Source: a virus (taxonomy: Duplodnaviria > Heunggongvirae > Uroviricota > Caudoviricetes). Taken from it: a stretch of DNA of 19,227 bases. Each line of letters begins with the position of its first letter. Position 1 is the first letter of the stretch. The stretch lies in the IMG/VR virus record IMGVR_UViG_2778261379_000001. The stretch is one strand, 5' to 3'. Below the pieces are notes generated by a model. That model ran no database searches. It worked only from the letters and a program-made list of their open reading frames with translations, and was not told the DNA's origin. The translations under genes were made by a program, and so were the position numbers. Below are positions 1-15,807 of this stretch, in pieces.

Positions 1-1152
1 GGTTGCCATACGATCGGGAATAATGCCACGACGCGCCCATGAGCTGAAATGCGTCTGGCGATTTGATGATACCCAGTTTTTGTTCGTTCGGGATGCCGAA
101 CCGTAATATCCCTCACTTGCAGCATCCGGATCTTCCGTTGGTGCGTTGGTGGAGGTATTGTTGCCACTACCATCGGTCAGGAACGGCACAAAGAAAACGT
201 TGTCGCTCTCCCTGTTTTTGTACGCCCCGTAAATGGTGTCGTACTGCGTGCCGTAGGTGTTTTTCCAGTAATACGTCGTGTCACCACAAATCCATGGCAC
301 ACTTGCCGCTCTGCCTCCATGACACTGCGTGTTAAACTCGGTAATGTCCGCACGAAACTGTTTCAGCATGGCCGTAAACAGCGGAGGTTGCTGTGAGTAC
401 GTAGCGGCGCTCATGTCAAATTCGCCCTGCATCCAGCATACGGCCAGCAGCATGTTTTTTGGGTTTTTCTGCAATGCGGCCTTCGTGCGCAAAATCAGGT
501 CCTGATATAAAGGTTTACCCACACCCCAGCGAGCCGAATCCTGACTGGCTCCTGTGGACTCGCTGAATGTCCCCTCCGCGCCCTGGGTGAATGCCGAACC
601 ACCACGACAGCATGGAACCAGTAAAATCCCGGCATTCTGTGGAATGTAAGGCAACAGGCGTTTGGCAATATGCAAGCCCTGTCCGACACAGCCATACTGC
701 CCTTTGCTCAGGTCTGCATTCGGGTGATTCAGTGCGCTCATATCCTGAACATCATGCAGGCAGTGGTCTGCCGGAATGATGTCGTTAAATGCGCATGCTT
801 TACCACCGGGAGTCACTGTGTTGCGACGGGCCAGTTGCTTAATGCGTGGGTGGGGCGCATCGTAAGAATCCGGCAGCGGCATTCCCTCACCATATGACAT
901 GGCATTGGATTGACCAGCAAGTACCACCACGTAATACCACTCCGGCACGCTGCCGTGCTGGGGGGAATCAGGTGAGATGTCTGTAGTGCCATCGGCCACC
1001 ATTGCCTGCATTAGATACCACGGGGTGCCGGGTTCGTAGGCAACCCGCGTCTCCCCCTGAAGATGCCACCCTTTCGCAAGATGTTCATTCACCTTTTGAG
1101 TCAGTTCAGCCTGTGTCATGGCTGTAATCAGTGCAAAGTTCTTACTGGTCAT
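1..1152 (-). CDS. NanS-p-like sialate O-acetylesterase (N-terminal DUF1737-like domain plus SGNH/DUF303 esterase domain); 3' end lies beyond window start
   Basis: Not in the ORF track because no stop falls in the window. My own minus-strand translation from ATG 1152 reads MTSKNFALITAMTQAELTQKVNEHLAKGWHLQGE...VVVLAGQSNAMSYGEG... The GQSN block is the catalytic-serine motif of the esterase family. SD GGGAG lies 7 nt upstream. The ATG overlaps the o-spanin stop (ATGA). Confidence 0.6.
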   Translation of the reverse strand, partial: MTSKNFALITAMTQAELTQKVNEHLAKGWHLQGETRVAYEPGTPWYLMQAMVADGTTDISPDSPQHGSVPEWYYVVVLAGQSNAMSYGEGMPLPDSYDAPHPRIKQLARRNTVTPGGKACAFNDIIPADHCLHDVQDMSALNHPNADLSKGQYGCVGQGLHIAKRLLPYIPQNAGILLVPCCRGGSAFTQGAEGTFSESTGASQDSARWGVGKPLYQDLILRTKAALQKNPKNMLLAVCWMQGEFDMSAATYSQQPPLFTAMLKQFRADITEFNTQCHGGRAASVPWICGDTTYYWKNTYGTQYDTIYGAYKNRESDNVFFVPFLTDGSGNNTSTNAPTEDPDAASEGYYGSASRTNKNWVSSNRQTHFSSWARRGIIPDRMAT

Positions 1153-1430
1153 TGTGTTACTCCCGTCTGGTGTGTCAGTTCGGCTATTCTCTTATCCAGT
1201 TCAGCAATGGCCCGTTTATCCGCGTTACAGGTTTCCAGTGCATCCAGAAGGCGGTCGCCCCATATTCCGAGGTTTCCCCATGTGGGTGGGTCAGGGAAGG
1301 GGGGAGGCGTTACCGGCATGGTCAGCGTCTGCGGTATAAGCCGGACTGACGGCGCTGGCCCTGGCGCGTTCTGCGTGCCTGCGCAACCTGTCAGTAAAAC
1401 GAGCGTCAGGCAAAGCGTGGGCGCATTCAT
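1149..1430 (-). CDS. o-spanin (Rz1/LysC-like outer-membrane lipoprotein), overlapping the 3' end of the i-spanin gene and extending past it
   Basis: Lipoprotein signal with lipobox MNAPTLCLTLVLLTGCAG followed by a proline-rich segment. Start taken at the internal ATG at 1430; the track ORF 1149..1460 begins at a GTG. Overlapped architecture as in P2 lysB/lysC. Confidence 0.5.
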   Translation of the reverse strand: MNAPTLCLTLVLLTGCAGTQNAPGPAPSVRLIPQTLTMPVTPPPFPDPPTWGNLGIWGDRLLDALETCNADKRAIAELDKRIAELTHQTGVTQ

Positions 1431-1686
1431 CTTTTGCAATATCGTTGCGTAGCTGTTCACGTCTTACCTCTCCGTCCTGATTGCGTTGCTGATTTTCCGC
1501 GCGGAGCTGAGCCAGCACCTGCTGCATATCCTGTACCCCGGCGCTGATGATATTCAGTGTGTCGACGGTACTTTTCAGGGTGCTGGCCTGCGCTTCGTTT
1601 CTGGCGTTCTCCCGGCCCAGCGACCACGACAGACGCATGGATGTAATCAGAAGGAAAGCGACGCCAAGCGTGGGCCAGAGCTTCAT
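1291..1686 (-). CDS. i-spanin (Rz/LysB-like)
   Basis: Internal ATG of track ORF 1291..1830 gives MKLWPTLGVAFLLITSMRLSW..., an N-terminal TM anchor followed by a Q/R/E-rich coiled-coil-like region. The ATG overlaps the endolysin stop (ATGA). Confidence 0.55.
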   Translation of the reverse strand: MKLWPTLGVAFLLITSMRLSWSLGRENARNEAQASTLKSTVDTLNIISAGVQDMQQVLAQLRAENQQRNQDGEVRREQLRNDIAKDECAHALPDARFTDRLRRHAERARASAVSPAYTADADHAGNASPLP

Positions 1687-2075
1687 GCCGGATAGGCTCC
1701 GTGTGGTAACTGAAAATGCGGTCCGTCTTTCAGGGTCTTCCAGTCGCCGCCCCATTCCACCGGAATATTCAGTTCCTGGCTGGCCTGTCTGAATGCTGCT
1801 GCGATTTTTTCGTACAGCGGCCATTCCCATGACACCTGGTTGCCGACATAAGCCACAACATCCACGGCATGCCCTGTGAGATGGCGACTGTTCATGGTCT
1901 GGCTCTTGCCTGTGGTCACGAGCTGCTTCTGACGATAACGACTGCGCAATCCTTCGGTGATACCAAAATCCACTTCCGAGATTTCCAGCGCCCGTCGGGT
2001 CACTTTCACCAGATCAGGATTTACACCCTGCAAATTCTTTTCGCTCCGGCTGCTGAATTTAAATGTGTTGCTCAT
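1683..2075 (-). CDS. endolysin, peptidase M15 family (cell-wall peptidase)
   Basis: 130 aa with zinc-peptidase-like blocks SRHLTGHAVDV and WGGDW...DGPHFQL. Strong SD GAAGGAGAGG upstream. Start overlaps the holin stop. Position is between holin and spanins. Confidence 0.75.
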   Translation of the reverse strand: MSNTFKFSSRSEKNLQGVNPDLVKVTRRALEISEVDFGITEGLRSRYRQKQLVTTGKSQTMNSRHLTGHAVDVVAYVGNQVSWEWPLYEKIAAAFRQASQELNIPVEWGGDWKTLKDGPHFQLPHGAYPA

Positions 2076-2395
2076 TCGTTCCTCTCCTTCACCCTGCGAT
2101 CAAATATTGCAATAACCTTGTCGCGTGCTTTCTCTGCGCCCATAAAACCGATTGAGGCACCAAAAAACGTCACTGCATCCTCAGGGATCCCGAAGAAGCG
2201 CAGCGACCCGGCCACGGCCATGGCAAGAACGCCGCACGCCAGCGATCCCGTTACGGTCTGAACCAGTGTTCGTCCGTCATAAAGACTCATCAGCGCGGAA
2301 ATGCTGACCGCCGCGCCTACTGCATACACCGTTGGCAGGTGGTCAAAGAGCCACGCAATAACCTGCTCTGTGATCCCTGTTTGAATGGTGCTCAC
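2072..2395 (-). CDS. holin (class I-like, three predicted TM segments); start uncertain
   Basis: C-terminal about 107 aa of track ORF 2072..2614 carry three hydrophobic helices and a charged tail (KARDKVIAIFDRRVKERNE). Proposed GTG start at 2395 sits just downstream of a GGAG that overlaps the X stop. The 5' part of the 180-aa track ORF overlaps X and is not coding in this frame. Confidence 0.55.
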   Translation of the reverse strand: MSTIQTGITEQVIAWLFDHLPTVYAVGAAVSISALMSLYDGRTLVQTVTGSLACGVLAMAVAGSLRFFGIPEDAVTFFGASIGFMGAEKARDKVIAIFDRRVKERNE

Positions 2396-2397
2396 TG

Positions 2398-2598
2398 CTA
2401 CTCCCCCCACAACTGAATCATTTCTCGTTTCTTCTTCTCCGGCTCCGGCATCTCCACTTCCTGCCCGGCGTCCAGAAATACCTGCTGACAGAGTCCGGGG
2501 TTGGCATCCAGCACCTTTTCGGTGACGCCCTGTGTCGTGCCGTAGTACCGGAAACAGAGCGAATCCACGGTGTCGCCTTCCAGTGCCTTCACTTTCAT
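2398..2598 (-). CDS. X: tail protein X (gpX-like)
   Basis: 66 aa MKVKALEGDTVDSLCFRYYGTTQGVTEKVL... resembles P2 gpX. ATG at 2598 overlaps the L stop (TGATG) with GGAG 8 nt upstream. Track start 2604 is a GTG. Confidence 0.7.
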   Translation of the reverse strand: MKVKALEGDTVDSLCFRYYGTTQGVTEKVLDANPGLCQQVFLDAGQEVEMPEPEKKKREMIQLWGE

Positions 2599-3092
2599 CA
2601 GCACAGCTCCGCAAACATTCGCGGTCGTCCCAGAATGTCAGAGATGGCCCAGCTCACATCGCGCCACAAATCCGATGTCTGTATATCCAGTGCGTCCGCC
2701 CGGCGGTCGCCCTTGTCCGTTGTGTCCGCATCGCGGTAACGCTCCAGAATCAGGGCGCGTGTGGCGGTATAAACAGCATTGCGCCAGTGCCAGAGATTGA
2801 CGCTTTCTCCGTTAATTACAGGGGCCGGAACATCGGCCAGCGTCTGATAGCCAGCCGCCTGTTGTTCCTGCTGCCATGCTTCCAGCTCGCGGGTAACGTG
2901 TGCTATGGCCCCGGTGGCGGTATGCAGCAGGCGGGAGGTGGTCACGCGGCCCGGCAGTCGTACCGCCAGACGCAGCTCGCGCAGCACAATATCCGGCCAG
3001 AATGCACCCGCTGAAATACGGGTATCGCCATCATCGGTGTCGGTGATGTCGTCCTCTGCGGGGCCGGGGTTAGTTCTGGCAACCATACTCAT
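2598..3092 (-). CDS. L: head completion/stabilisation protein (gpL-like)
   Basis: About 164 aa at the position and size of P2 gpL. ATG at 3092 is 8 nt from SD CAGGAG. Track start 3101 is a GTG that overlaps the SD. Confidence 0.8.
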   Translation of the reverse strand: MSMVARTNPGPAEDDITDTDDGDTRISAGAFWPDIVLRELRLAVRLPGRVTTSRLLHTATGAIAHVTRELEAWQQEQQAAGYQTLADVPAPVINGESVNLWHWRNAVYTATRALILERYRDADTTDKGDRRADALDIQTSDLWRDVSWAISDILGRPRMFAELC

Positions 3093-3104
3093 GGGGTTCA
3101 CTCC

Positions 3105-3177
3105 TGAAAAAATCGGGCGGTGGGTGCGCGGTGTAAACGGTCACGGAGTCAAACCGGAACACCGCGCACGCCGCCCG
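3105..3177 (-). terminator. GC-rich hairpin with T-tract on the minus strand between M and L (candidate intra-operon intrinsic terminator)
   Basis: Arms 3114..3134 (CGGGCGGTGGGTGCGCGGTGT) and 3159..3177 (ACACCGCGCACGCCGCCCG) are near-complementary. On the minus strand the stem is followed by TTTTTT, then the L SD. Confidence 0.4.
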
Positions 3178-3193
3178 CTGACGGGGTCAGTCG

Positions 3194-3994
3194 TTAACCG
3201 CGCTTTGCCTTCTGCGTCGCGGTGGTTTTTCGTGTTGCAGGCTTCCGCGTTGTCTTTTTACTTTTGCTGCTTTCGTCCTGCGCCTGCTGTGCGCTGGCGT
3301 CTTCTGGTTCGGCTGCGGAATCGGCTTTTTTCAGGGCGCGGGAAAGGGTTGCAATCTCGCGTTTCACACCTGCGTTCGGGTTCAGGTGCATCGCTTCGCG
3401 CAGCAGCTTCAGTGATGAGGCCATGTTGTCTGCATCGGTCAGGCCACGACGGGCAAAGGCACACGCCTTGCATAATTTGGCGCGCACTTCGTCCGGCATG
3501 TCCTGGTTGGCGATAATTTCCCAAAGTGTGTCCAGTGGTTCGATAAAGGCGGATAAATCCGCGTCGGCATCCGTCCCAGCCTGCGTCAGTACCGGGTTGC
3601 AGATTTCTTCGGTCAGTACCGTGGCAGCAGTACGGCCAAAGTTATCCGGCATGATGAGGTTGTGACGGACCACATATGCACCAATACGCAGCGCCAGCGG
3701 AAGATCGCCGCAGTCAATCGCCCACACCATCAGCGTGGCAATTACTTCGTCCTGTTGCCCGCCGTCAGCCTCCAGCGTTCCCTCAATCCAGCCGGAAAAG
3801 TCCGGCAACAACTCTTTTTTGATGGCGGCTTTCGCGCTTCTGGCCTGTATGGCCTTTAGCCTGGCCTGTGCCAGACGCAGACGATACAGCACCTCTTCAT
3901 GCGCGGTACACGCGGCGTGGTCCACACCTTCATTCGCCCGGCCTGCGCGCTGTGCCATCACGTTCTGCCAGTGTTGTTGTGCAGGAGTAATCAT
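3194..3994 (-). CDS. M: terminase endonuclease (small) subunit, gpM-like
   Basis: 266 aa at the P2 gpM position between N and L. ATG with SD GGAGAG upstream. Confidence 0.8.
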   Translation of the reverse strand: MITPAQQHWQNVMAQRAGRANEGVDHAACTAHEEVLYRLRLAQARLKAIQARSAKAAIKKELLPDFSGWIEGTLEADGGQQDEVIATLMVWAIDCGDLPLALRIGAYVVRHNLIMPDNFGRTAATVLTEEICNPVLTQAGTDADADLSAFIEPLDTLWEIIANQDMPDEVRAKLCKACAFARRGLTDADNMASSLKLLREAMHLNPNAGVKREIATLSRALKKADSAAEPEDASAQQAQDESSKSKKTTRKPATRKTTATQKAKRG

Positions 3995-5985: not shown

Positions 5986-6106
5986 GATGGCAAAGCGTAA
6001 CAGGCTGATACAAAGGGCTTTTGTTGTAAGAAAACAGTCAGAACAGAGGGTTAAGGAGAACAGTTTCGCGCGCGGGTAATCTTCCTGTAATTACTCAGGG
6101 GGAGCA
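5986..6106. promoter_or_regulatory. divergent late-promoter region between O (minus) and P (plus)
   Basis: 121-bp intergenic region separating divergent late operons, as for P2 PO/PP. I could not place a TGT-N12-ACA activator dyad with confidence. Confidence 0.4.
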
Positions 6107-7858
6107 ATGATTCAGGACGCTTTTGTGCGCCAGCGTGCGCGGCAACTTTACTGGCAGGGTTATCCGCCCGCAGAAATATCACGTCTGATGGGAATAAACC
6201 CGAACACGATTTATGCGTGGAAAAAACGTGACCAGTGGGATGAAACGCCACCCGTGCAGCGTGTCACGCAGTCCATCGATGCGCGCCTCATCCAGCTTAC
6301 TGAAAAACAGAATAAAACAGGCGGTGACTTTAAGGAAATAGACCTGCTGACCCGGCAGCTTAAAAAGCTGCATGATGGCCAGCCGGATGTGATGGCCGCA
6401 GGAAAGAAAGGCCGGGCGAAAAAACTCAAAAATCATTTCACGCCGGAACAGATTGCCGCACTGCGGGAAAAAATCATCAGCAGGCTGGAGTGGCATCAGC
6501 GGGGCTGGTTTGACTCCCTGACCCTTTGCAGGGAAGCCGGGATACGTAACAGGATGATCCTGAAATCCCGACAGATTGGGGCGACCTGGTATTTTGCACA
6601 GGAAGCACTGCTGATGGCGCTGCGTGACGATGTGGCGCAACCTTACCAGCGTAACCAGATTTTTTTGTCTGCGTCGCGTCGTCAGGCGTTCCAGTTTAAA
6701 AGCATTATTCAGAAGGCCGCGGCTGAAGTTGATGTGGAGCTGAAAGGGGGCGATAAAATCATCCTCTCCAACGGCGCAGAGCTGCATTTTCTCGGCACTT
6801 CTGCTGCGTCGGCACAGTCCTATACGGGCAATTTTTATTTTGATGAATTTTTCTGGGTCAGTCGCTTTGCTGAACTGCGCAAGGTGGCTGGCGCTATGGC
6901 AACCCTCAGCGGACTGCGGCGCACCTACTTCTCCACGCCATCCACCGAAACGCACGAGGCATACGCCTACTGGAACGGCGACCGCTGGAACGAGAAAAAG
7001 GCCTCGCATAAACGCCAGCGTTTTTCTGTGGACTGGAAAACGCTGCATAATGGGCTTATCTGCCCTGACCGGACGTGGCGGCAAATTGTCACGCTGGAAG
7101 ATGTGGTTAATCACGGCTGGAAACACACCGATATCGACGAAATTCGTGATGAAAACACCGAAGACGAGTTCCTCAATCTCTATATGTGTGAGTTTGTCCG
7201 CGAAGGGGAATCGGCATTTAACCTGAATATCCTGATTGGCTGCGGTGTTGACGGATACGACGACTGGAAAGACTGGAAACCTTTTGCTCCCCGCCCGATG
7301 GGGAATCGTCCGGTATGGATTGGGTATGACGCAAACGGCAGTAGTGGCAACGGCGACAGCGGCGCTGTGTCCGTGGTGGTTCCTCCGGCTGTTCCTGGCG
7401 GCCGTTTTCGAACGGTGGAGACGCGACGCGTTCAGGGGCTGGAGTTTGAAGAACAGGCCAGAGTCATTGAAGAGTTCACGTGTCGCTACAACGTGGAACA
7501 CATCGGCATTGATGTGACGGGCGGGAACGGGGAGGCTGTTTATCAGATAGTGAAGCGGTTTTTCCCTGCTGCTATTCCGTACACCTTCACGCTGTCATCA
7601 AAACGGTCGCTGGTACTGAAAATGCTGCAAATAATGCGTGCCGGGCGGTGGGAATACGATCGCGCCGAACGCGAGCTGGTCGCGGCCTTTAACGCCGTGC
7701 GTAAGGTGAAAACACCGGGCGGCTTTATCACTTACGAAACGGACCGCGCGAGGGGGATCAGCCACGGCGACCTTGCGTGGGCAACCATGCTTGCTGTCAT
7801 TAACGAACCAATTGGCGGCGAAGGAGAAAACGAGCGTTTCATGGTTATGGAGTTCTGA
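6107..7858 (+). CDS. P: terminase ATPase (large) subunit, gpP-like
   Basis: 583 aa. N-terminus LYWQGYPPAEISRLMGINPNTIYAWKKRDQWDE matches remembered P2 gpP. Stop overlaps the Q start (TGATG). Confidence 0.9.
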   Translation: MIQDAFVRQRARQLYWQGYPPAEISRLMGINPNTIYAWKKRDQWDETPPVQRVTQSIDARLIQLTEKQNKTGGDFKEIDLLTRQLKKLHDGQPDVMAAGKKGRAKKLKNHFTPEQIAALREKIISRLEWHQRGWFDSLTLCREAGIRNRMILKSRQIGATWYFAQEALLMALRDDVAQPYQRNQIFLSASRRQAFQFKSIIQKAAAEVDVELKGGDKIILSNGAELHFLGTSAASAQSYTGNFYFDEFFWVSRFAELRKVAGAMATLSGLRRTYFSTPSTETHEAYAYWNGDRWNEKKASHKRQRFSVDWKTLHNGLICPDRTWRQIVTLEDVVNHGWKHTDIDEIRDENTEDEFLNLYMCEFVREGESAFNLNILIGCGVDGYDDWKDWKPFAPRPMGNRPVWIGYDANGSSGNGDSGAVSVVVPPAVPGGRFRTVETRRVQGLEFEEQARVIEEFTCRYNVEHIGIDVTGGNGEAVYQIVKRFFPAAIPYTFTLSSKRSLVLKMLQIMRAGRWEYDRAERELVAAFNAVRKVKTPGGFITYETDRARGISHGDLAWATMLAVINEPIGGEGENERFMVMEF

Positions 7859-8904
7859 TGAGCAGAAAAAATAAAAAAGTGCGCATGAGTTCACGCATTG
7901 ATCTCGCTGATGCGCTCAGGAAAGAATCATCGCTCAGTGCATTCACATTTGATGGTCCTTATCGCCTGACCGGGCATGACCTGCTGGACAATATGTACTG
8001 TGCTGATAACGGGCGGTGGTATGAAACCCCGGTGGACTGGTACGGTCTGGCAAGAGCAGCCCGGCAAACGTCCTGGCATCAGTCTGCGCTTTACTTTAAG
8101 CGCAATGTATTACTCGGTTGCTACATCCCGCACCCGCTGCTTTCCCGGCAGGATTTCTCGGCGCTGGCGCTGGACTGGTTTGTGTTCGGTAACGCATTCC
8201 TTGAGCTTCGAAGCAATATGCTCGGCGAACCGCTTAAATTACGGCACGCCCTGGCGAAATACATGCGACGCGGAAGCGATCTTGAATCATGGTGGTATGT
8301 GCAGGATGGCAAGGACGCGTTTCAGTTTCGTCCTGGCAAAGTGTGCCACCTGATGAATCCGGATATTAACCAGGAAATCTACGGCATGCCGGAATATCTT
8401 GGCGCATTACTCTCGGCCAGCCTTTCTCATTCGGCGGACATGTTCAGAAAACTGTACTACGACAACGGATCCCACGCCGGGTGCATCATCTACATCGGTG
8501 CAGCGCAGGTAAACCGCGAAAGCATGGACTCCCTGAAAGAAACGCTACAGGGGGCACGTGGTGGTGGTGCGTTTAAAAACGTGCTCATTCATGCGCCCAA
8601 CGGGGGCAAAGAGGGGGTGCAAATTTTGCCGTTCCAGCAGATCACCGCAAAAGATGAATTCATGAATGTTAAGGCGGCATCCCGTGATGATGTGCTGGCT
8701 GCGCACCGCGTTCCGCCGCAACTGATGGGGGCGATGCCGGGCGAAAAAAGTGCGTTTGGCGATGTGGAGAAGGCAGCGCGGGTTTACGCAATTAACGAGC
8801 TGATGCCCGTTATGGAGGCTATGAAGCACATCAATGACTGGCTTGGCGAAGAGGTGATCCGTTTTAACTCTTATGCTCTTCTTGATGAAAAAACAGCCCC
8901 GTGA
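7858..8904 (+). CDS. Q: portal (capsid vertex) protein, gpQ-like
   Basis: 348 aa with blocks NGRWYE, FVFGNAFLE, DINQEIYGMPEYL, HRVPPQLMG, WLGEEVIRF matching remembered P2 gpQ. Confidence 0.9.
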   Translation: MSRKNKKVRMSSRIDLADALRKESSLSAFTFDGPYRLTGHDLLDNMYCADNGRWYETPVDWYGLARAARQTSWHQSALYFKRNVLLGCYIPHPLLSRQDFSALALDWFVFGNAFLELRSNMLGEPLKLRHALAKYMRRGSDLESWWYVQDGKDAFQFRPGKVCHLMNPDINQEIYGMPEYLGALLSASLSHSADMFRKLYYDNGSHAGCIIYIGAAQVNRESMDSLKETLQGARGGGAFKNVLIHAPNGGKEGVQILPFQQITAKDEFMNVKAASRDDVLAAHRVPPQLMGAMPGEKSAFGDVEKAARVYAINELMPVMEAMKHINDWLGEEVIRFNSYALLDEKTAP

Positions 8905-8920
8905 TGGGGCTGTCCTTTTT
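8888..8920. terminator. bidirectional intrinsic terminator between convergent Q and the 174-aa gene
   Basis: Stem ACAGCCCC (8893..8900) pairs with GGGGCTGT (8906..8913) around a 5-nt loop. A T-run follows on the plus strand (8916..8920) and on the minus strand (complement of the A-run 8888..8892). The hairpin overlaps the Q stop codon. Confidence 0.5.
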
Positions 8921-9443
8921 ACCAGAGTTGAACCATTTTCTGGGTGCCGTCAGGCTTGAGATTATCAATTTCAGAGAGAACGTAATATTGAATGGCTTCA
9001 CAAACGGTGGTGTAGGGTGAATTACCTTCTTTAAGTGGCACGATATTATTATTAACGCGAACCTGTATTTCATCGTTATACATTGCGATCGAAACAGGAG
9101 TGTGCACGAACGCGACTTCGCCAGGTGTGTCGTCAACCACCGTTTCAATACTAAAAGTCAGTTTTCGCTCATCATTGCTGCCCCGTGCTTTGGGGGTAGC
9201 GGCAGGGATCTGGGATAAAGGCATTCTGCGAAATCCTTCGGCTGCTTCCAGTCCGCATGAAACGTAATGCTGGCGATTACCGTCGCTATCTGTCCAGGTC
9301 TGTGATGGCAGCTCCAGCGAGATTTCATAAGCATCAACAATGCCCTGGGCAAGGCGTACAAGCGGGGTCAGATCTTCATTGCGGCGAAAGCTCTCCTTTA
9401 CCTGCTCCCGTTTTTCTCTTAACTGCTTGTAATTAATGACCAT
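8919..9443 (-). CDS. hypothetical protein, 174 aa (orphan accessory gene convergent with Q)
   Basis: Start taken at ATG 9443 with SD GGAGG 7 nt upstream (MVINYKQLREKREQVKESF...). The track start 9482 is a GTG. No motif I recognise. Ends in the shared terminator hairpin. Confidence 0.55.
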   Translation of the reverse strand: MVINYKQLREKREQVKESFRRNEDLTPLVRLAQGIVDAYEISLELPSQTWTDSDGNRQHYVSCGLEAAEGFRRMPLSQIPAATPKARGSNDERKLTFSIETVVDDTPGEVAFVHTPVSIAMYNDEIQVRVNNNIVPLKEGNSPYTTVCEAIQYYVLSEIDNLKPDGTQKMVQLW

Positions 9444-9542
9444 AAGACAGCCTCCATTGATTTCTTTGCTCGTATTTTGCACTTATGAAGTATGGTCGGC
9501 AAGGTGCCGTATCGCTGACGCGCTTCGCTTGTCTGCTGCTTC

Positions 9543-9571
9543 GCCGGGGCATAAAAAATTTATGCCCCGGC
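9543..9571. repeat. perfect 13-bp-stem palindrome GCCGGGGCATAAA/TTTATGCCCCGGC with 3-nt loop
   Basis: Read directly from the sequence. No T-tract on either side, so not a classical intrinsic terminator. Lies about 100 bp upstream of the 174-aa gene start. Confidence 0.5.
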
Positions 9572-9848
9572 TCTCCAGCTCCTGTATCAATCAGATAATT
9601 TCACGACGCCTTCCAGTTTATCGCCACCATCGACGGTCAGACTCTTACGCAATTCCACCGCGTTGACTGCATGTTCTCGCTGCCTCAGTGCGATTTTGAC
9701 GGCCTTACCTTTCACCCCATCAAATCAAAAGCCCTCACGCCTTTTTCATGCTCAGCGTGAGAAATATGGCCATTCTGTTGTGTCTCTGCGACATCGTTCA
9801 GGGAATGCTATTTACCCCCTGAAACGCGGGCTGTTCCCCCGTCACCTG

Positions 9849-9872
9849 CGCGCAGAAAAAGCGCGTTTTTTT
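9849..9872 (+). terminator. candidate plus-strand intrinsic terminator
   Basis: CGCGC-AGAAAAA-GCGCG followed by TTTTTTT. No convincing coding ORF lies upstream on the plus strand. Confidence 0.35.
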
Positions 9873-9942
9873 GTGCACGCACGGATCCTTGACGGATCCA
9901 GCCGCCATGCGGGCCGGAAGGGTAAAAAGTCGTTCAAAAAAA

Positions 9943-9969
9943 TTGTGCAAATTTGTGCACTTTTGTGCA
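9943..9969 (+). repeat. three direct TTGTGCA heptamers at exact 10-bp phasing (9943, 9953, 9963)
   Basis: Sequence reads TTGTGCAaatTTGTGCActtTTGTGCA. The last copy ends about 20 bp upstream of the candidate -35. Confidence 0.45.
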
Positions 9970-9988
9970 GGTAAGCATGCCTATATAT

Positions 9989-10017
9989 TTGACCGTGGCT
10001 TGCCTTTGATGTAGTTT
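9989..10017 (+). promoter_or_regulatory. candidate sigma70-type promoter for the AT-rich cassette
   Basis: TTGACC (9989..9994), 17-bp spacer, TAGTTT (10012..10017). Weak -10, pattern match only. Confidence 0.25.
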
Positions 10018-10069
10018 ATACGTCACAAAAACCACAAAACGTGGTTATGATTTCTATGAGGGGGTTGAT

Positions 10070-10105
10070 ATGAAAAAAATGTATGATGAATTTGATGGTT
10101 TCTAA
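10070..10105 (+). CDS. candidate 11-codon leader peptide (MKKMYDEFDGF)
   Basis: ATG preceded by GAGGGGG SD with about 6-nt spacer, stop TAA at 10103..10105, followed 20 nt later by an intrinsic terminator and then the first cassette gene. Confidence 0.25.
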   Translation: MKKMYDEFDGF

Positions 10106-10125
10106 GCTACGTTGACCTCTAATGA

Positions 10126-10152
10126 GGCGGGGATTTGCTCCCCGCCTTTTTT
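10126..10152 (+). terminator. intrinsic terminator / candidate attenuator just upstream of the cassette
   Basis: GGCGGGGA-TTTGC-TCCCCGCC followed by TTTTTT. The stop of the hairpin is 14 nt before the 10167 start codon. Confidence 0.45.
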
Positions 10153-10166
10153 ATGGATGAAATAGG

Positions 10167-10664
10167 ATGAACCCAATAACACTACAAATCATCAGCAATG
10201 CTATTGTTCTGCTTGGCGTTTTGGTTGCCATTGGAACCATTATCTACAATGTGCGTACCGCAAAAAAAACTCAAACGGCCAACTTTCTTTTTGAGAGTCG
10301 GCAAGATATGCAATATATAGAGTCATTGCATACCCTGAAACAAGTGCATCGTTCAGGCAAATCATTTCGTTCTTATGTTTTTCCTTGTGATGGTTGCATA
10401 ATAACAGATGAAGAAATGGCCGAGCGTCGAAAATTTCAATATATTTTAAATTTTTACGAGCGAGTTGCTGTAAGTATTCGTGAAGGTATTTATGATGAAA
10501 AAATGATAAAAAGAACATCTTACACAACAGTTGTAGAGACATATGATATTGCCGAGCCATTAATTAAAGCAATCAGAGAAAGCATTAATTCGGATACTAC
10601 ATATCAAGAATTCGAATGGTTAGTAAGAAGATGGAAAGCTAATCCTTTACGGAAAAACAAATAA
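10167..10664 (+). CDS. hypothetical membrane-anchored protein, 165 aa (one N-terminal TM helix plus soluble domain); first gene of AT-rich cassette
   Basis: ATG start. N-terminus ITLQIISNAIVLLGVLVAIGTIIY is a clear TM helix followed by a charged, mixed soluble region. Codon usage is strongly AT-biased relative to neighbours. No motif I recognise. Confidence 0.65.
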   Translation: MNPITLQIISNAIVLLGVLVAIGTIIYNVRTAKKTQTANFLFESRQDMQYIESLHTLKQVHRSGKSFRSYVFPCDGCIITDEEMAERRKFQYILNFYERVAVSIREGIYDEKMIKRTSYTTVVETYDIAEPLIKAIRESINSDTTYQEFEWLVRRWKANPLRKNK

Positions 10665-10703
10665 TGTTTTACCCTTTAATTTACAAGTAACACAGGGGGA
10701 AGT

Positions 10704-11546
10704 GTGACACAGAATCCGTTTTCATTTTATGACTTTTTGGGCTATCTAATTCCAGGTGGGTTATTCCTGTTTATCCTTTTTTTGTTTTCTATTGAAATTA
10801 ACCCTGTTTATATAGAAGGTATTCTTAACCATATCCTGAAATATAAAGAAATAATAAGTGTATTTATATATGTGGTATTAATCGTTCTATCATATATTTC
10901 AGGTCACTTCATATCTATTCTATCATCCTGTTTAATTGAAAAATACATGAACAGTAAACTTGGGTATCCTTCAATTTATCTGTTTTCTAAAAGAAGCTCC
11001 CTGAAAATAAAACGACATAATACTAAGTTCAGTATAGTTAATTTTATTCGTGGAGTTTTTTTATTTCCTGTATCAGCTTTTGATAAAGCAGAACATCATA
11101 AAACCACACTGCATTCTATACTTATTAAAGTCTTTTGGCCGCAAATACGAGATGGTTATATAAATGTTTTTTCTGTATCTACGCTATATCGACGTAAGGG
11201 CTTGAGGGGCGATCTTTTTCGCCTTGCTTATCATTATGTGTATGAACATTCTAAAAATCATCAGGTGAAAATGCAAAACTATGTTGCTTTGTATGGTTTT
11301 TGTAGAAACATTACATTTGTTTTTCTCGCTTCAGTCTGGTTGCTTATGTTCCTGCTCCTTCTATCCTTTTTAATAGATATAAATATCAGACTGTTACCTT
11401 TTTGTTTTCTTCTCTTGTTTTGTATTGCTGCATCCCGAGTATTTTATTATGGTTTTGTTAAGTATTATCGCCGCTATTCTCTTGAGGTTTTAATGGCATT
11501 TGCGGTACTTCAGCACGATAAAAAAACTTCGGCAATTTCATCATGA
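10704..11546 (+). CDS. hypothetical polytopic membrane protein, 280 aa (about four TM helices: two N-terminal, two C-terminal, with a central cytosolic region)
   Basis: GTG start with GGGGGA SD just upstream. Hydrophobic segments at about residues 12-29, 52-75, 197-220 and 225-245. AT-rich like the upstream gene, 39-bp gap, same strand. Confidence 0.65.
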   Translation: MTQNPFSFYDFLGYLIPGGLFLFILFLFSIEINPVYIEGILNHILKYKEIISVFIYVVLIVLSYISGHFISILSSCLIEKYMNSKLGYPSIYLFSKRSSLKIKRHNTKFSIVNFIRGVFLFPVSAFDKAEHHKTTLHSILIKVFWPQIRDGYINVFSVSTLYRRKGLRGDLFRLAYHYVYEHSKNHQVKMQNYVALYGFCRNITFVFLASVWLLMFLLLLSFLIDINIRLLPFCFLLLFCIAASRVFYYGFVKYYRRYSLEVLMAFAVLQHDKKTSAISS

Positions 11547-11557
11547 TTTGAAACATT

Positions 11558-11580
11558 GGCACCCTGTTAGCAAGGGTGCC
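11558..11580. other. hairpin GGCACCCT-GTTAGCA-AGGGTGCC between the convergent cassette and parR
   Basis: Read directly from the sequence. No adjacent T-tract on either strand. Confidence 0.3.
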
Positions 11581-11629
11581 AGAATGATGTGTTGGTCTGT
11601 ATTTTATTAGTTCACATACAATTATCAGA

Positions 11630-11944
11630 TTATTCTGGGAATAAGGTCTGAATATTCTTTTTTATTTTATAAAAATTGCATTCAACTCCGCTAGGCTGAT
11701 TATCCTGGTATGTTTCCTTGATGCTAACGGTATTGAAGGGGAGGTTGTCCTCTGGCCATTCGGCCATCCAGTAGGCAAATGCTGGGTTGCGCTTTATGAG
11801 CGCTAGCCCAGCCAGAAAGGCCGCGCGTTGCGCGCGGCTGCGTTCGGAGGCTGGCAGGCTATCGAGGTAATTGCACGCCTCCTGTTCACTCTTGACGGCG
11901 GCGGGCTTCAGATAGAAACTTATCCGTCTGGTTGGTGTCGTCAT
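11630..11944 (-). CDS. parR: ParR-like partition adaptor (ribbon-helix-helix centromere-binding protein)
   Basis: Internal ATG at 11944 with SD AAGGAG 7 nt upstream, 4 nt after the parM stop. N-terminal region RRISFYLKP...LDSLPASERSRAQRAAFLAGLALIKRNP aligns with remembered R1 ParR (RRTIAFKLNP...LDSIPQGERSRLNRAALTAGLALYRQDP). Confidence 0.6.
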   Translation of the reverse strand: MTTPTRRISFYLKPAAVKSEQEACNYLDSLPASERSRAQRAAFLAGLALIKRNPAFAYWMAEWPEDNLPFNTVSIKETYQDNQPSGVECNFYKIKKNIQTLFPE

Positions 11945-11948
11945 TGGT

Positions 11949-12908
11949 TTACTCCTTGTCCATTGCGTACAGCCCATTAACCAGAGCAAACTGTGGCACC
12001 CCGTCCGCGATGAAAGTCGCATTAACTCCGCAGACTTCGCGGATAGCGGGTGCCACAATCTCCGCCCCTCCACCGACAACCATCACCCGCCCGTAACCCG
12101 AAAAAACCGCCAGCGCGCGGATCACGCGTTGTTTCAGTGTTTCTTCCTTTTCACGAATAACCGCCATCAGGCTGGCGTAATGCGCGTCATTGTGGATGTG
12201 CTGGCGCAGCCAGGCTTCATCATGGCGATGTTCGATAATGGTATTGGCGATGTGGTGACTGGTGCGCATACCGTTAGTGGCCATCACCGACAGTACGGCA
12301 TCGGCCATCAGGGAAACGCCTACGTGTGGATCGCAAAACACCTGGCTGATACCTGCCAGTTGCCCTTGAACCTTTGCCACATCCAGCGTGGTTCCGCCTA
12401 AATCCACAATCAGCAGGGATTCAAACGGACTCATGTCAGCCAGTGCTTTAAAGCCAGCCGGAATGGATTCAGGCATAACCCGCACGTTACGGATAGTGAA
12501 TGCTTCGCCGTTCTGGTATTCCACCGGGCGCATAACGTTCGCTTTTTTGCGGTTGATGTTGGCCATGTCCGGCTGTGCGTTTGTGTCGAAATACTCGCTC
12601 AGTGGCAGGGTGACAACCACATCCACCTCCTGTGGCGTGATGCCTGATTTGACCAGCGCGTGATGAATGGCGATTACATTCACATCGCTGTACTGGTATT
12701 GCGTGTCGGTCGTCTGGACAAAGCGATCGCTAACCGGATCAAAACCATAGCGCACGCCATCAAGCATGTAGTTCGCGGGCTGCATGCCACCGAACGGCGC
12801 AGACCATTCCGACTTGAAGCTGTTCGGGCTGATGGCGTTGCGGCGTTCGCCATTCTCAGTCCATGCCAGCTTGATGTTGGTGGAGCCGTCGTCGATACAA
12901 ATTTTCAT
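11949..12908 (-). CDS. parM: ParM/StbA-family actin-like segregation ATPase
   Basis: 319 aa. N-terminus MKICIDDGSTNIKLAW...ISPNSFKSEW...YQYSDVNVIAIHHALVKSG closely matches remembered R1 ParM (MLVFIDDGSTNIKLQW...ISPNSFKREW...WQYSDVNVVAVHHALLTSG). Good SD AAGGA. Confidence 0.85.
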   Translation of the reverse strand: MKICIDDGSTNIKLAWTENGERRNAISPNSFKSEWSAPFGGMQPANYMLDGVRYGFDPVSDRFVQTTDTQYQYSDVNVIAIHHALVKSGITPQEVDVVVTLPLSEYFDTNAQPDMANINRKKANVMRPVEYQNGEAFTIRNVRVMPESIPAGFKALADMSPFESLLIVDLGGTTLDVAKVQGQLAGISQVFCDPHVGVSLMADAVLSVMATNGMRTSHHIANTIIEHRHDEAWLRQHIHNDAHYASLMAVIREKEETLKQRVIRALAVFSGYGRVMVVGGGAEIVAPAIREVCGVNATFIADGVPQFALVNGLYAMDKE

Positions 12909-12939: not shown

Positions 12940-13051
12940 TTTACGGGATTCTGAAATCCCGTTTTTGCCTGTTTTGTGCGCGCTTCATATATCGCTGCGC
13001 GTTTTTTGCTCATTTACGGGATTCGTAAGTCCCGTTTCTGTCTGTTTTTTG
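12940..13051. repeat. two about 39-bp direct repeats (12940..12978 and 13013..13051, 33/39 identical), each containing an ACGGGA(TT)/(AA)TCCCGT inverted repeat; candidate parC centromere/operator
   Basis: Repeat 1 lies in the A-parM intergenic region 32-70 bp upstream of parM. Repeat 2 lies within the last codons of gene A. The two copies are 73 bp apart. Confidence 0.45.
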
Positions 13052-15807
13052 TTTCCACTGGTCAGGCCACCCCGCAGCAGGTCTGCTTTGCGGCTGGCGC
13101 GTTCAGTGGTTTCACTGATTCTCTGTGCGTGCTCTGCGTCGCGGATGGCGCGCAGCATGTCAGAAAGCACGGTAACGGGTGTTTTCATGGTGTTCTGGCC
13201 CTGCTGAAGTGTGGATGCCAGGCGTGCGGCGGCTTCAGGGTCTGATGCCCCCAGCTGTGCCAGATAGCTGGCGACCGGGTTATGGCGGATCTCCGTGCTG
13301 CTTACGCCATGATTACGGCTCAGGCGCTGCCAGAGCTGCGTGATTCGGCTGTCCGGGCGGGTATCCGGTTTGCGTACAATTTCAAATCCCTGCGGTGCAA
13401 TGATGCTGCCGTCAACGTACAGACTGCCGCCCCGTAACAGGTGCTGCATCTGTTGTTCACCGATATGCAGGCCGAGAGATTCAGCAGACTCCCGCCATTC
13501 TTTAGCGAGTAATTCGTGGTTATCAGGCAAAGGCCGCTGCTGTTTGCGGCTCTGTGTCCAGCTCTGCATTTCATCGCTGCTGTTTTTTGCCTGTTTGTCA
13601 CGAAGCGAACGCATCAGCGCCCGGCGTTCGTGTCGTTTCAGTGAGCGCATCCATTCGTTCACTTCAACGCCGTCAGGGAGCTGCGGCCACGGTGCTGGCC
13701 GTTCTTCCGGCTGTTCTGTCCCGTTGTTGTCCGTTTCCTGTACACGGGGACAGTTATTGCCACGAGTCCAAGGGGCGGCAGGGCCGCCCTGAAGGTCAAA
13801 ACCATTTTCGCGGGCGCTGTCTTCCGCTTCCGGTTTACGTCTTACCAGCTTCCAGTTATCCGGATGCGTGCACACACGGGAGGATTCCCCGATGAGTGGT
13901 GACCAGATCCCGTAAATCTGTACGCTCTGTTCGCCGTAATCGTTCAGCTCATCTGCGAGGTCGTAGGCGGTGCGAATCAGGTAGTCCTTGCGTGGAACAA
14001 GCACGCCACCCTGTTTTTCAATGTAGGTGGCAAAACACCCGGCATCGGCGGCAGCGAGTACCGCATCCATTGCATCATCTTTCAGCCGTTGCGGGCCTTC
14101 CGGATTGCGTGCCATCTGGCTGGCAAGGCGGCGCAGTTCACGCCACACCTGACGGGAGGGGATGCCAAAGAACTGGAACTGACGGACCCGGTGAAGGCGC
14201 GCCCAGCCGATGGCGCGCTCCACGCTCTCGGCCATTGATTTTCCGGTTTCGTGGTCCACGCGTGGCTTGCCCGTTTTCGGGTCGATGCCATCCACGGCGC
14301 GGCTGTCCAGGTTCTTTCCGATGTAGGTGGCGATGTAGCTGGTTGGCGTGCCTTTTGAGCCGTCGACATACTCCACCTTAAAGCGCGGAGTAATATCATT
14401 GCCCAGCTCGTGGCGGTCTTCCTGAATGGCAATATCGCGGGTATGGGACACAATGGTGTCGATTTCTTCCGGATGTGCAAAGACCATCATATGCCAGTGC
14501 ACGGTGCCGTCATGATGAGGCTCCACCGTGCGGATGCCATACCAGCGCAGGCCGTCGCGGTTCAGTTTTTTGCGGACCGCCGCAAAAAACGTGTTAACCA
14601 GGTAATCGCTGGAGTCGCGCATTGTGGCCCCGTTCCATTTGGGATTCGGATGACCGTTCTCCGTTGTGGCGTGGTATTTTGACGGGCAGGTGACAGTCAG
14701 AAACACCGCTTTGTCGCCACGGGCTTCGGCCAGAAGTTCCAGTCCCTTCATGGTGGCCATCATTTCTGCCTTACGGTGAACCGGGTTACTTACTCCCGCG
14801 TAATACACTGTCTCGAGATCAATCGTGAACCCGTCTTCATTTTCCAGCATGAAACTTTTCAGGAAATCGCGTGTTTTCTCGCGCTGTGCGCGAAACTCGC
14901 TTAACGCGTCCTGGCTCAGATAGGGTGATGTTTTTCTGGAAACCAGACAGGCGGCGCGGAGTTGTTCTTCTCTCCACTCGCAACGTAACAGCCACAGTTT
15001 GCGTTTCCACCATTCCGCACAGGTCAGGCGAAGGATTGCGCCCGGCAGCAGCTCCGTGTCCGGTTCGTTCCTCCGGTCTTTGTCTGTTGTCAGTGCGTCA
15101 TAATGTGGAGGCATGGCGTGCAGGTGTAACGCCATGCGGGCCAGCATCTGATACGCCTTCAGGGTTACATCCATGGTCAGCTCGCCATCGGTCGCGCCAA
15201 AGCCATCGCAGAGTTTTTCGAAGGTGCTGCTGAACATCGCCGCCGTCATGGTGGCCAGCGTCTGTATCTGGTGTTTGTTGAGCTGCGGCAGGTAAAGCAA
15301 ATCGTCCAGGCGTTCGCGTCCGGCAAGGGAGCGATAACCCGGTGTCAGCCAGCGTCCGTCAGTGCTATCCAGACGTTCGAATATTTTGCGCAGGGTTCCG
15401 CGTGCATAGCGTTCCGCCTGCCAGCTCTTTTTGCCTTTCCGGCGATCGGCTTCCTGTTTTTTGCGCAGGAAGGAGAGGTGGCGAATAAGCGGATCGCGCA
15501 GATAGGACGGCAGCAGGCGCAGCGAGGCCATGGCTTCATCCACCGCGCCACGTGCCTGTTTTCTGGCGTCTCCTGCCAGTGTGATGGTTTTGTCCTGTTT
15601 TTCCTGTGCGTCCAGGCTTTTATTAATCAGGTTGCCCAGCGGCGTGGCTGAGAACGCCGCATCAGCCATTTCCTGGCGGCGCTCGTTCTCTGCCCGGTAG
15701 GCATCCAGCCAGGAGGAAAGCGCGGATTCAGGAGCGGGGATCCCCGTTCCTTCACGCCCCACTGCGTGGCGCGGTTGTTGCCAGTCCCTGAGGTACTCTG
15801 CCGTCAT
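12985..15807 (-). CDS. A: replication initiation endonuclease (gpA-like, HUH rolling-circle nickase)
   Basis: 940 aa containing HUH motif DGTVHWHMMVFAHPEE and the tyrosine pair SYIATYIGKN. Position after the early genes is as in P2. Longer than P2 gpA as I remember it (761 aa), with the extra length C-terminal. Confidence 0.85.
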   Translation of the reverse strand: MTAEYLRDWQQPRHAVGREGTGIPAPESALSSWLDAYRAENERRQEMADAAFSATPLGNLINKSLDAQEKQDKTITLAGDARKQARGAVDEAMASLRLLPSYLRDPLIRHLSFLRKKQEADRRKGKKSWQAERYARGTLRKIFERLDSTDGRWLTPGYRSLAGRERLDDLLYLPQLNKHQIQTLATMTAAMFSSTFEKLCDGFGATDGELTMDVTLKAYQMLARMALHLHAMPPHYDALTTDKDRRNEPDTELLPGAILRLTCAEWWKRKLWLLRCEWREEQLRAACLVSRKTSPYLSQDALSEFRAQREKTRDFLKSFMLENEDGFTIDLETVYYAGVSNPVHRKAEMMATMKGLELLAEARGDKAVFLTVTCPSKYHATTENGHPNPKWNGATMRDSSDYLVNTFFAAVRKKLNRDGLRWYGIRTVEPHHDGTVHWHMMVFAHPEEIDTIVSHTRDIAIQEDRHELGNDITPRFKVEYVDGSKGTPTSYIATYIGKNLDSRAVDGIDPKTGKPRVDHETGKSMAESVERAIGWARLHRVRQFQFFGIPSRQVWRELRRLASQMARNPEGPQRLKDDAMDAVLAAADAGCFATYIEKQGGVLVPRKDYLIRTAYDLADELNDYGEQSVQIYGIWSPLIGESSRVCTHPDNWKLVRRKPEAEDSARENGFDLQGGPAAPWTRGNNCPRVQETDNNGTEQPEERPAPWPQLPDGVEVNEWMRSLKRHERRALMRSLRDKQAKNSSDEMQSWTQSRKQQRPLPDNHELLAKEWRESAESLGLHIGEQQMQHLLRGGSLYVDGSIIAPQGFEIVRKPDTRPDSRITQLWQRLSRNHGVSSTEIRHNPVASYLAQLGASDPEAAARLASTLQQGQNTMKTPVTVLSDMLRAIRDAEHAQRISETTERASRKADLLRGGLTSGNKKQTETGLTNPVNEQKTRSDI

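Follow-up and report, generated by a model that had tools for sequence, protein, structure and literature searches.

The window, as the whole stretch of DNA analysed here is called, comprises 19,227 nt from a virus of the Caudoviricetes (IMG/VR record IMGVR_UViG_2778261379_000001). At its left end lies the first part of a nanS-p-like gene, a member of the prophage-borne sialate O-acetylesterase family, directly beside the lysis genes of a P2-like prophage. Read on the minus strand from position 1152 to position 1, the frame runs through 384 codons without a stop and continues past the edge of the window, and because the program-made list of open reading frames leaves out frames that cross the window end, the gene does not appear there. 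An earlier note on this DNA, made from the letters alone, had read the gene in this way, and the translation bears it out. The PHROGs family phrog_143 aligns with the window part across positions 1-384 of its 634-position profile (E=3.8e-225), from which it follows that about 250 residues are missing from the window. These residues could be recovered by extending the contig, as the earlier note had proposed, since positions 1-3200 are 100% identical to Escherichia coli chromosomes of sequence type 131 (ST131; JJ1887, O25b:H4 and others) and the overlap between the window and the JJ1887 locus (L001) is identical up to the end of L001 (blastn). The JJ1887 copy measures 1878 bp and encodes 625 residues (WP_000202148.1, L001 11275..13152), so that the frame stays open for 241 further codons beyond position 1 and does not close just past the edge, the outcome that would have deprived the gene of its esterase domain. 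The locus therefore carries an intact NanS-p-family gene that is cut by the window edge. In JJ1887 the product is annotated as a 'DUF6645 domain-containing protein', and no NCBIfam model matches it. The features of the region are collected in the table.

Table. Features of the esterase gene and the adjoining lysis genes (positions are those of the window)
Feature	Position	Strand	Evidence
nanS-p-like gene, first 384 of 625 codons	1..1152	minus	open frame, phrog_143, identical full gene in L001
DUF1737 (PF08410), N-terminal, residues 4-53, P2-type variant	994..1143	minus	Pfam, 29.6 bits (cut-off 24)
NanS-type SGNH/SASA esterase core, residues 69-384 in the window	1..948	minus	match to 3PT5, Pfam SASA
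GQSN motif, residues 80-83, presumed nucleophile Ser82	904..915	minus	invariant in alignment A1 and in the 3PT5 alignment
His368 codon, (T/S)HFSS motif, presumed catalytic His	49..51	minus	invariant in A1, six alleles and 3PT5
ATGA, esterase start overlapping lysC stop	1149..1152	minus	sequence and RefSeq annotation of both genes
GGGAG Shine-Dalgarno, 7 nt 5' of the esterase ATG, within the replaced lysC 3' end	1160..1164	minus	
lysC, o-spanin, Rz1-like	1149..1409	minus	Pfam LysC E=1.6e-13, annotation
lysB-like i-spanin (DUF2570)	1291..1686	minus	phrog_214 Rz-like spanin E=1.7e-39, annotation
M15-family endolysin	1683..2075	minus	Pfam Peptidase_M15_4, phrog_465
lambda-S-type holin	2072..2395	minus	Pfam Phage_holin_3_1 E=1.9e-18, annotation
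Window part of the 1995-bp segment absent from P88-type phages	1..1204		P88 homology resumes at 1205

The domain content of the full protein agrees with the architecture that had been recognized from the window alone, a DUF1737-like N-terminus followed by an SGNH esterase domain with a GQSN motif. DUF1737, SASA and DUF6645 all score above the Pfam cut-off in the 625-residue protein, so that it has the three domains of a NanS-p enzyme, the first two of which are seen in the window itself. The hidden Markov model searches suggested in the earlier note thus return both PF08410 and PF03629, the latter over residues 75-271 with 46.3 bits against a gathering score of 24.8. Residues 69-388 match the solved structure of NanS/YjhS (3PT5) with E=1.7e-125, the core ending at about residue 388, just past the window edge, and residues 430-622 match the solved C-terminal domain of a NanS-p enzyme (6YP6) with E=1.7e-29. 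Over its full length the protein is 80% identical to the 'yjhS' product of the lambdoid phage JLK-2012, rising to 86-87% in the core and C-terminus, and about 48-51% identical to NanS-p of the 933W/phi24B type, the comparison with Shiga toxin-producing E. coli prophages that the earlier note had in mind. With family matches of this strength, the possibility that the frame has no significant match among sialate O-acetylesterases or SGNH proteins falls away. Ser82 and His368, which we take to be the catalytic residues from what is generally known of SGNH enzymes, are unchanged in every allele compared and in NanS, and both codons lie within the window. By a rough hydropathy check, the N-terminus has no hydrophobic stretch resembling a signal peptide (maximum Kyte-Doolittle mean 1.0). 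As judged from its sequence, the protein is a NanS-p-type prophage sialate O-acetylesterase composed of a DUF1737 module, an SGNH core and a lectin-like jelly-roll C-terminus.

The surrounding genes place this esterase in a P2-like prophage (Peduoviridae, P88/Xuanwuvirus type). On the same strand follow the LysB-like spanin, the M15 endolysin, the holin, X, GPL, gpM, the P2-family capsid gene and GPO, while the terminase and portal genes lie on the opposite strand and the GPA replication protein is encoded further along. This is the gene order of P2, with Q and P on one strand and O, N, M, L, X, holin, endolysin, lysB/lysC, R, S, V, W, J and I on the other, and positions 1205-3200 are 95-96% identical to P88-type phages. 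The direct coupling of the gene to the lysis cassette of a P2-like prophage, including the overlap of its ATG (1152-1150) with the TGA of the LysC-family o-spanin gene (1151-1149), was correctly described in the earlier note. Its further statement that the esterase sits where P2 has the tail-completion genes R and S does not hold, for in JJ1887 R begins 23 nt past the esterase stop and S overlaps R; both are intact, and the esterase gene is inserted between lysC and R. The gene thus shares with other nanS-p genes a position in the prophage late region beside lysis genes and the lack of a secretion signal. It lacks their typical context, a lambdoid or Shiga toxin (Stx) phage with Q/pR' expression: the background is P2/P88-like, and neither Q nor a pinholin gene was found near the gene.

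Comparison with the esterase-less phage P88 (blastn of L003 against L001) delimits what was inserted. A 1995-bp segment (L001 11210-13204) stands in place of 93 bp of P88, and both breakpoints fall in coding sequence, one in lysC and the other in R, such that lysC in its last ~19 codons (window 1149-1204) and R in its first ~14 depart from P88. The stop codon of lysC and the start codon of R overlap in P88, which indicates that overlapping frames are ancestral at this junction and that the insert recreates the overlap for the esterase. Breakpoints inside lysC and R point to homologous recombination with a P2-like phage that already carried the esterase; on these sequence comparisons the P88-type backbone would have gained the segment from such a phage. 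No other match to the variant lysC tail and R head of the donor was found in the phage collection.

Exchange appears to have continued within the gene. The N-terminal 68 residues of the alleles from O104:H4 (L010 2323-4203) and ST131 (L001 11275-13152) are identical, as is most of the C-terminal domain, whereas the esterase cores are 89% identical and the O104:H4 core matches the lambdoid JLK-2012 allele at several positions. This pattern suggests that the nanS-p paralogues of a genome undergo gene conversion. DNA homology to the lambdoid alleles ends at window position 946, beside the domain boundary at ~948. Four apparent chimeras across the esterase were also seen. In two of them (L022 and L023, about 6061-12247), a P2 capsid gene, lysB/lysC and a P2-type N-terminus precede a lambdoid pinholin S, which takes the place of R/S; the other two (L030, 2769-5735; L043, 10001-12967) have a JLK-type N-terminus and a P2-type C-terminus (97-100% identical), followed by P2 R and S. 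These contigs reflect either recombination between P2-like and lambdoid prophages mediated by nanS-p paralogues or mis-joins of draft assemblies at the repeat. Judging by how many complete genomes have each junction (375, 376 and 375), such recombinants would be rare at most.

The N-terminal module is the part of the protein that differs most from its lambdoid counterparts. The P2-borne DUF1737 is 22-34% identical to lambdoid NanS-p N-termini (22% to that of phi24B) and carries an aromatic loop, GTPWY, where phi24B has AGYGAEF. An exhaustive phmmer search of 1.84 billion representatives with the 68-residue module yielded only 11 relatives, and a word-indexed protein search returned fragments of the same allele only. 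Two apparent stand-alone module proteins, P0011 and P0013, were rejected as such, since both are pieces of a complete esterase gene that is broken by frameshift on a contig of low coverage, and a comparison of the module alone with solved structures gave chance coiled-coil matches only. The nearest relative lies on a metagenome contig (L015) that encodes a different endolysin type, then a LysB-like and a LysC-like protein (the latter 65% identical) and a DUF1737-esterase whose module is 55% identical to the P2-borne one and 31-34% identical to the lambdoid types, with an esterase core at 81%. This cassette, with the same lysB-lysC-DUF1737-esterase order, shows that a deeper P2-type lineage of the gene exists. 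In L015 (931-1329) the esterase start lies ~30 nt past the LysC-like frame, without overlap, from which it is clear that the ATGA overlap is not universal for the arrangement; the gene is apparently frameshifted there, at a coverage of 1.6x. The P2-type module was seen only beside lysC: among 80 viral contigs, lysC lies upstream in 11/11 cases with the P2-type N-terminus against 0/68 without it, but this association was rejected as functional evidence because physical linkage alone explains it. Nor does the N-terminal type track the capsid family in any simple way: in a set of six alleles representing five head types, the lambdoid N-termini keep 51-83% identity although BLASTP finds no relationship between the major capsid proteins, and the P2 type is the sole outlier.

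The arrangement is widespread in E. coli. Of 5426 complete E. coli genomes, 376 (about 7%) have the N-terminal coding part, 375 the whole lysis-esterase arrangement and likewise 375 the esterase-R junction. In 27 of 30 sampled rows the N-terminal match overlaps an annotated lysC, the other three listing no lysC. Since the P88-type lysis cassette is present in 1010 complete genomes, about 37% of the prophages with this cassette carry the esterase. The N-terminal DNA is at least 99% identical in 367 of the 376 genomes, which belong to unrelated lineages; carriers include ST131, O104:H4 C227-11 (in the same context), O103:H2, O111:H11, and bovine and environmental strains. In the phage collection, an esterase homologue was found in 353 of 50,697 records, three of which are P2-like (Peduoviridae or P88-type), all at least 99% identical to the window; the other records listed are Stx-converting or other non-P2 phages of E. 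coli and Shigella, and every one inspected was lambdoid. Two records, vB_EcoM-569R5 and 705R2, were considered as proof that the prophage can be induced and set aside, as both derive from prophages located in genome sequences. A search with one genome per species found relatives in Escherichia sp. and E. albertii only, in lambdoid context, while Proteus faecis and a metagenome-assembled genome labelled Bacillota gave core-only (NanS-like) matches without the DUF1737 module. NanS-p is otherwise almost entirely lambdoid, but the background that the earlier note called unusual is so only when set against published work, the arrangement itself being common and present in much-studied strains.

Scans for expression signals in the region gave nothing beyond chance. 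In the esterase region, a simple sigma-70 scan found promoter-like sites at chance level (2, against 2.6 expected from shuffles), terminator-like sites were equally at chance (5 against 4.3), and the GC and composition profile showed no break. With no promoter or terminator of its own, no composition break and a place within the late O-to-S string of genes, the esterase is expected to be expressed in the lytic cycle. The earlier note had considered lysogenic conversion; taken strictly, as expression from the repressed prophage, this finds no support in the anatomy of the locus. A strict Ogr-type dyad (TGT-N12-ACA) was found neither at the O/P intergenic region nor inside the operon; the only two matches, at 9776 and 10010, are below chance frequency. 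The assignment of the gene to a late operon consequently rests on synteny with P2.

The prophage that carries the gene in ST131 is most likely Phi1. In JJ1887, beyond the window (L001 1-5255), the tape-measure gene carries a frameshift according to its annotation and runs opposite to the other tail genes, and an IS1A element and tail-fibre fragments are found on either side of an invertase gene. The JJ1887 copy may therefore be rearranged or defective, and any release of the esterase by lysis would then be affected in this strain.

With its identity, architecture, intactness, position and distribution established, the gene is best explained as a whole, with a probability of roughly 0.8, as a NanS-p esterase encoded by an extra late gene of a P2-like prophage, released by lysis and acting on O-acetylated sialic acids. 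Lacking a promoter of its own and a secretion signal, the esterase would be produced only after the switch of the prophage to lytic growth, with translation from a ribosome-binding site of its own that lies in the rebuilt lysC 3' end, and lysis by the holin, endolysin and spanins, whose genes lie immediately upstream, would let it out of the cell. Once outside, by analogy with its relatives, it may remove 9-O-acetyl (possibly 7/8-O-acetyl) groups from the sialic acids of mucus glycans while its C-terminal domain would hold it on the carbohydrate. N-acetylneuraminic acid (Neu5Ac) would thereby become usable by surviving sibling lysogens, and the enzyme could possibly aid the phage particle in mucus. 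All the while, the core would keep exchanging sequence with the lambdoid nanS-p copies of the same genomes. What is known of the family fits this account: NanS-p is the established prophage-borne esterase of enterohaemorrhagic E. coli for 5-N-acetyl-9-O-acetylneuraminic acid (Neu5,9Ac2), its members act on Neu5,9Ac2 and mucin, support growth on Neu5,9Ac2 and are induced with the late genes (PMC8065619; PMC10462455; PMC5923452). According to a review (PMC8065619), each of the five NanS-p enzymes of C227-11 has activity. In that strain, blastn finds five nanS-like places and the lysC-linked esterase gene is present (1,681,594-1,683,474; WP_000202135.1), so that the P2-borne allele was probably among the five enzymes tested.

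Several observations weigh against this account. The head of the O-to-S operon bears no strict Ogr-type dyad, and a simple sigma-70 scan could miss a weak internal promoter that gives basal expression in lysogens. The frameshifted tape measure and the IS1A element of JJ1887 indicate that lysis-dependent release is perhaps impaired in some hosts. Finally, the gene is very probably EC958_1029 of ST131 strain EC958: interpolation of locus tags places that gene at ~965 kb, in prophage Phi1, in agreement with the JJ1887 coordinates. EC958_1029, which is 82.7% identical to the 617-residue lambdoid paralogue EC958_1546, was cloned and overexpressed without an effect on motility, unlike that paralogue (PMC5425062).

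A different role that overlaps with release by lysis rather than excluding it, and which we regard as possible but doubtful, is that of a virion-decoration enzyme. By analogy with phi24B, the DUF1737 module would anchor the esterase and lectin on the hexons of the P2-type capsid and aid mucus binding or crossing, any metabolic benefit to lysogens being secondary. The DUF1737 of phi24B gp84, itself a NanS-p, is reported to be a capsid-binding domain that assembles as a hexamer and sits in the central hexon of the T=9 shell, anchored by a Tyr42 loop, the enzyme part being cleaved later (preprint 10.64898/2026.04.10.717836). Several features described above would fit an anchor of this kind: a DUF1737 of its own type on a core and C-terminus close to JLK-2012, an end of lambdoid DNA homology beside the domain boundary, a module conserved at 100% between ST131 and O104:H4 despite the 11% difference of their cores, its recurrence in the divergent lysB/lysC cassette of L015, the aromatic loop at the site of the phi24B anchor loop, and the situation of the gene among virion genes. 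However, the N-termini of JLK-2012 and PhiR12_2 are 83% identical although their capsid proteins are unrelated by BLASTP, the association of the module with lysC is what physical linkage alone predicts, and in phi24B only the flat hexon at the centre of the T=9 shell's faces is bound. The P2-type shell is T=7 and has no flat face-centred hexon of the kind used by gp84, and we know of no decoration protein of P2-like phages. More tentatively still, the P2-lineage DUF1737 could be an anchor adapted to the T=7 shell, so that particles would be decorated with a sialate esterase and lectin; if so, the Peduoviridae would have their first described decoration protein, and enzyme cargo would have moved between unrelated phage types by the swapping of the anchor module only.

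The enzyme might also modify the bacterial surface, de-O-acetylating O-antigen or polysialic or other capsules, and thereby aid the adsorption of progeny or prevent their re-adsorption to lysed cells. SGNH esterases serve as tailspike enzymes in some phages, and the gene lies between lysis and tail-completion genes. A surface-modifying role has been raised as a possibility for NanS-p in a review (PMC8065619). It is nonetheless improbable here, given a core very close to the sialate-specific esterase NanS, an N-terminal DUF1737 that is reported to bind capsids and not to act as a tail or baseplate adaptor, and carriers of many serotypes with differing O and K antigens, which argue against a host-specific receptor role. 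Least probable of all, we think, is that the gene is a neutral or decaying passenger, carried along by a successful prophage without a present function. The only assay reported for overexpressed EC958_1029, motility, showed no effect, and ST131 already has other NanS-like genes (PMC5425062), while the JJ1887 prophage looks partly degraded. Against these points stand an intact 625-codon frame with conserved catalytic residues in 375-376 complete genomes of unrelated lineages, a divergent second lineage (L015) that keeps the same arrangement, and a fitted ribosome-binding site with translational continuity to R. A NanS-p esterase that is made late and released by lysis thus remains the preferred reading of the gene.

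The remainder of the window holds further genes outside the late operon. The variable region between the portal gene Q and the replication genes, which in P2-like phages often carries defence genes, contains cargo at 10167-11546 (plus strand) and 8919-9482 (minus strand). The former comprises a DUF4760 protein (E=1.8e-34) followed by a 280-residue protein with a weak Csx27-like PADLOC match (E=1.1e-5); a 187-residue open reading frame of the region has no family match. Adjoining the replication gene is a partition pair, ParM (StbA) and a StbB-like protein (11630-12908, minus strand; ParM_N/StbA_N E=2.7e-82, Plasmid_stab_B E=1.9e-28), which suggests a capacity for plasmid-like maintenance. The replication gene itself (12985-15807, minus strand) encodes a 940-residue GPA-family endonuclease in which the Pfam GPA domain covers only residues 179-503, leaving ~440 C-terminal residues with no assigned family.

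Taken together, the enzyme belongs to a family that is already well characterized, and what is new is its P2-like background, the insertion site inside the late operon and the lineage-specific DUF1737. No literature linking NanS-p or DUF1737 to P2-like phages was found: EC958_1029 was treated only as a NanS-like paralogue, with its P2-like context and N-terminal domain uncommented (PMC5425062), and neither an esterase nor a sialic-acid gene is mentioned in a survey of P2-like viruses from 2026. The same enzyme is thus present in a P2-like prophage lineage found in ~7% of complete E. coli genomes, including pandemic ST131 and the O104:H4 outbreak strain, and counts of nanS-p alleles and ideas on their regulation (Q/pR', co-expression with stx) should not presume a lambdoid context. 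On the distinct N-terminal module, moreover, the recent claim of a capsid-anchoring DUF1737 could be put to a simple test. In other respects, the protein is a well-conserved member of its family and opens no new kind of biology.

Set beside the known systems, the P2-borne esterase resembles the NanS-p proteins of lambdoid and Stx phages (933W L0105/z1466; phi24B vb_24B_21, which is gp84; JLK-2012 'yjhS') in its three modules, its conserved GQSN serine and histidine, the lack of a signal peptide and its place in the prophage late region beside lysis genes. It differs from them in its Peduoviridae background and its weakly similar DUF1737, and in lying downstream of the spanin genes and upstream of R, whereas lambdoid nanS-p lies between stx/Q and the holin gene S; its control is presumably that of the P2 late-activator system instead of Q/pR'. 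Chromosomal NanS (YjhS, 3PT5), which is a periplasmic export and a member of the nanCMS sialoregulon, has a core that is homologous over its whole length and bears the same motifs, but the P2-borne protein has in addition a DUF1737 and a lectin-like C-terminus, lacks a signal-like N-terminus and is a phage late-gene product. Known cargo of P2-like phages includes the cdt-V operon in P2-like prophages of O157, and a hotspot for such genes lies between Q and A. Like these morons, the esterase is an extra gene on a conserved P2-type backbone; unlike them, it lies outside the usual hotspots, has no promoter or terminator of its own and is spliced into the middle of the late operon with overlapping or closely spaced frames.

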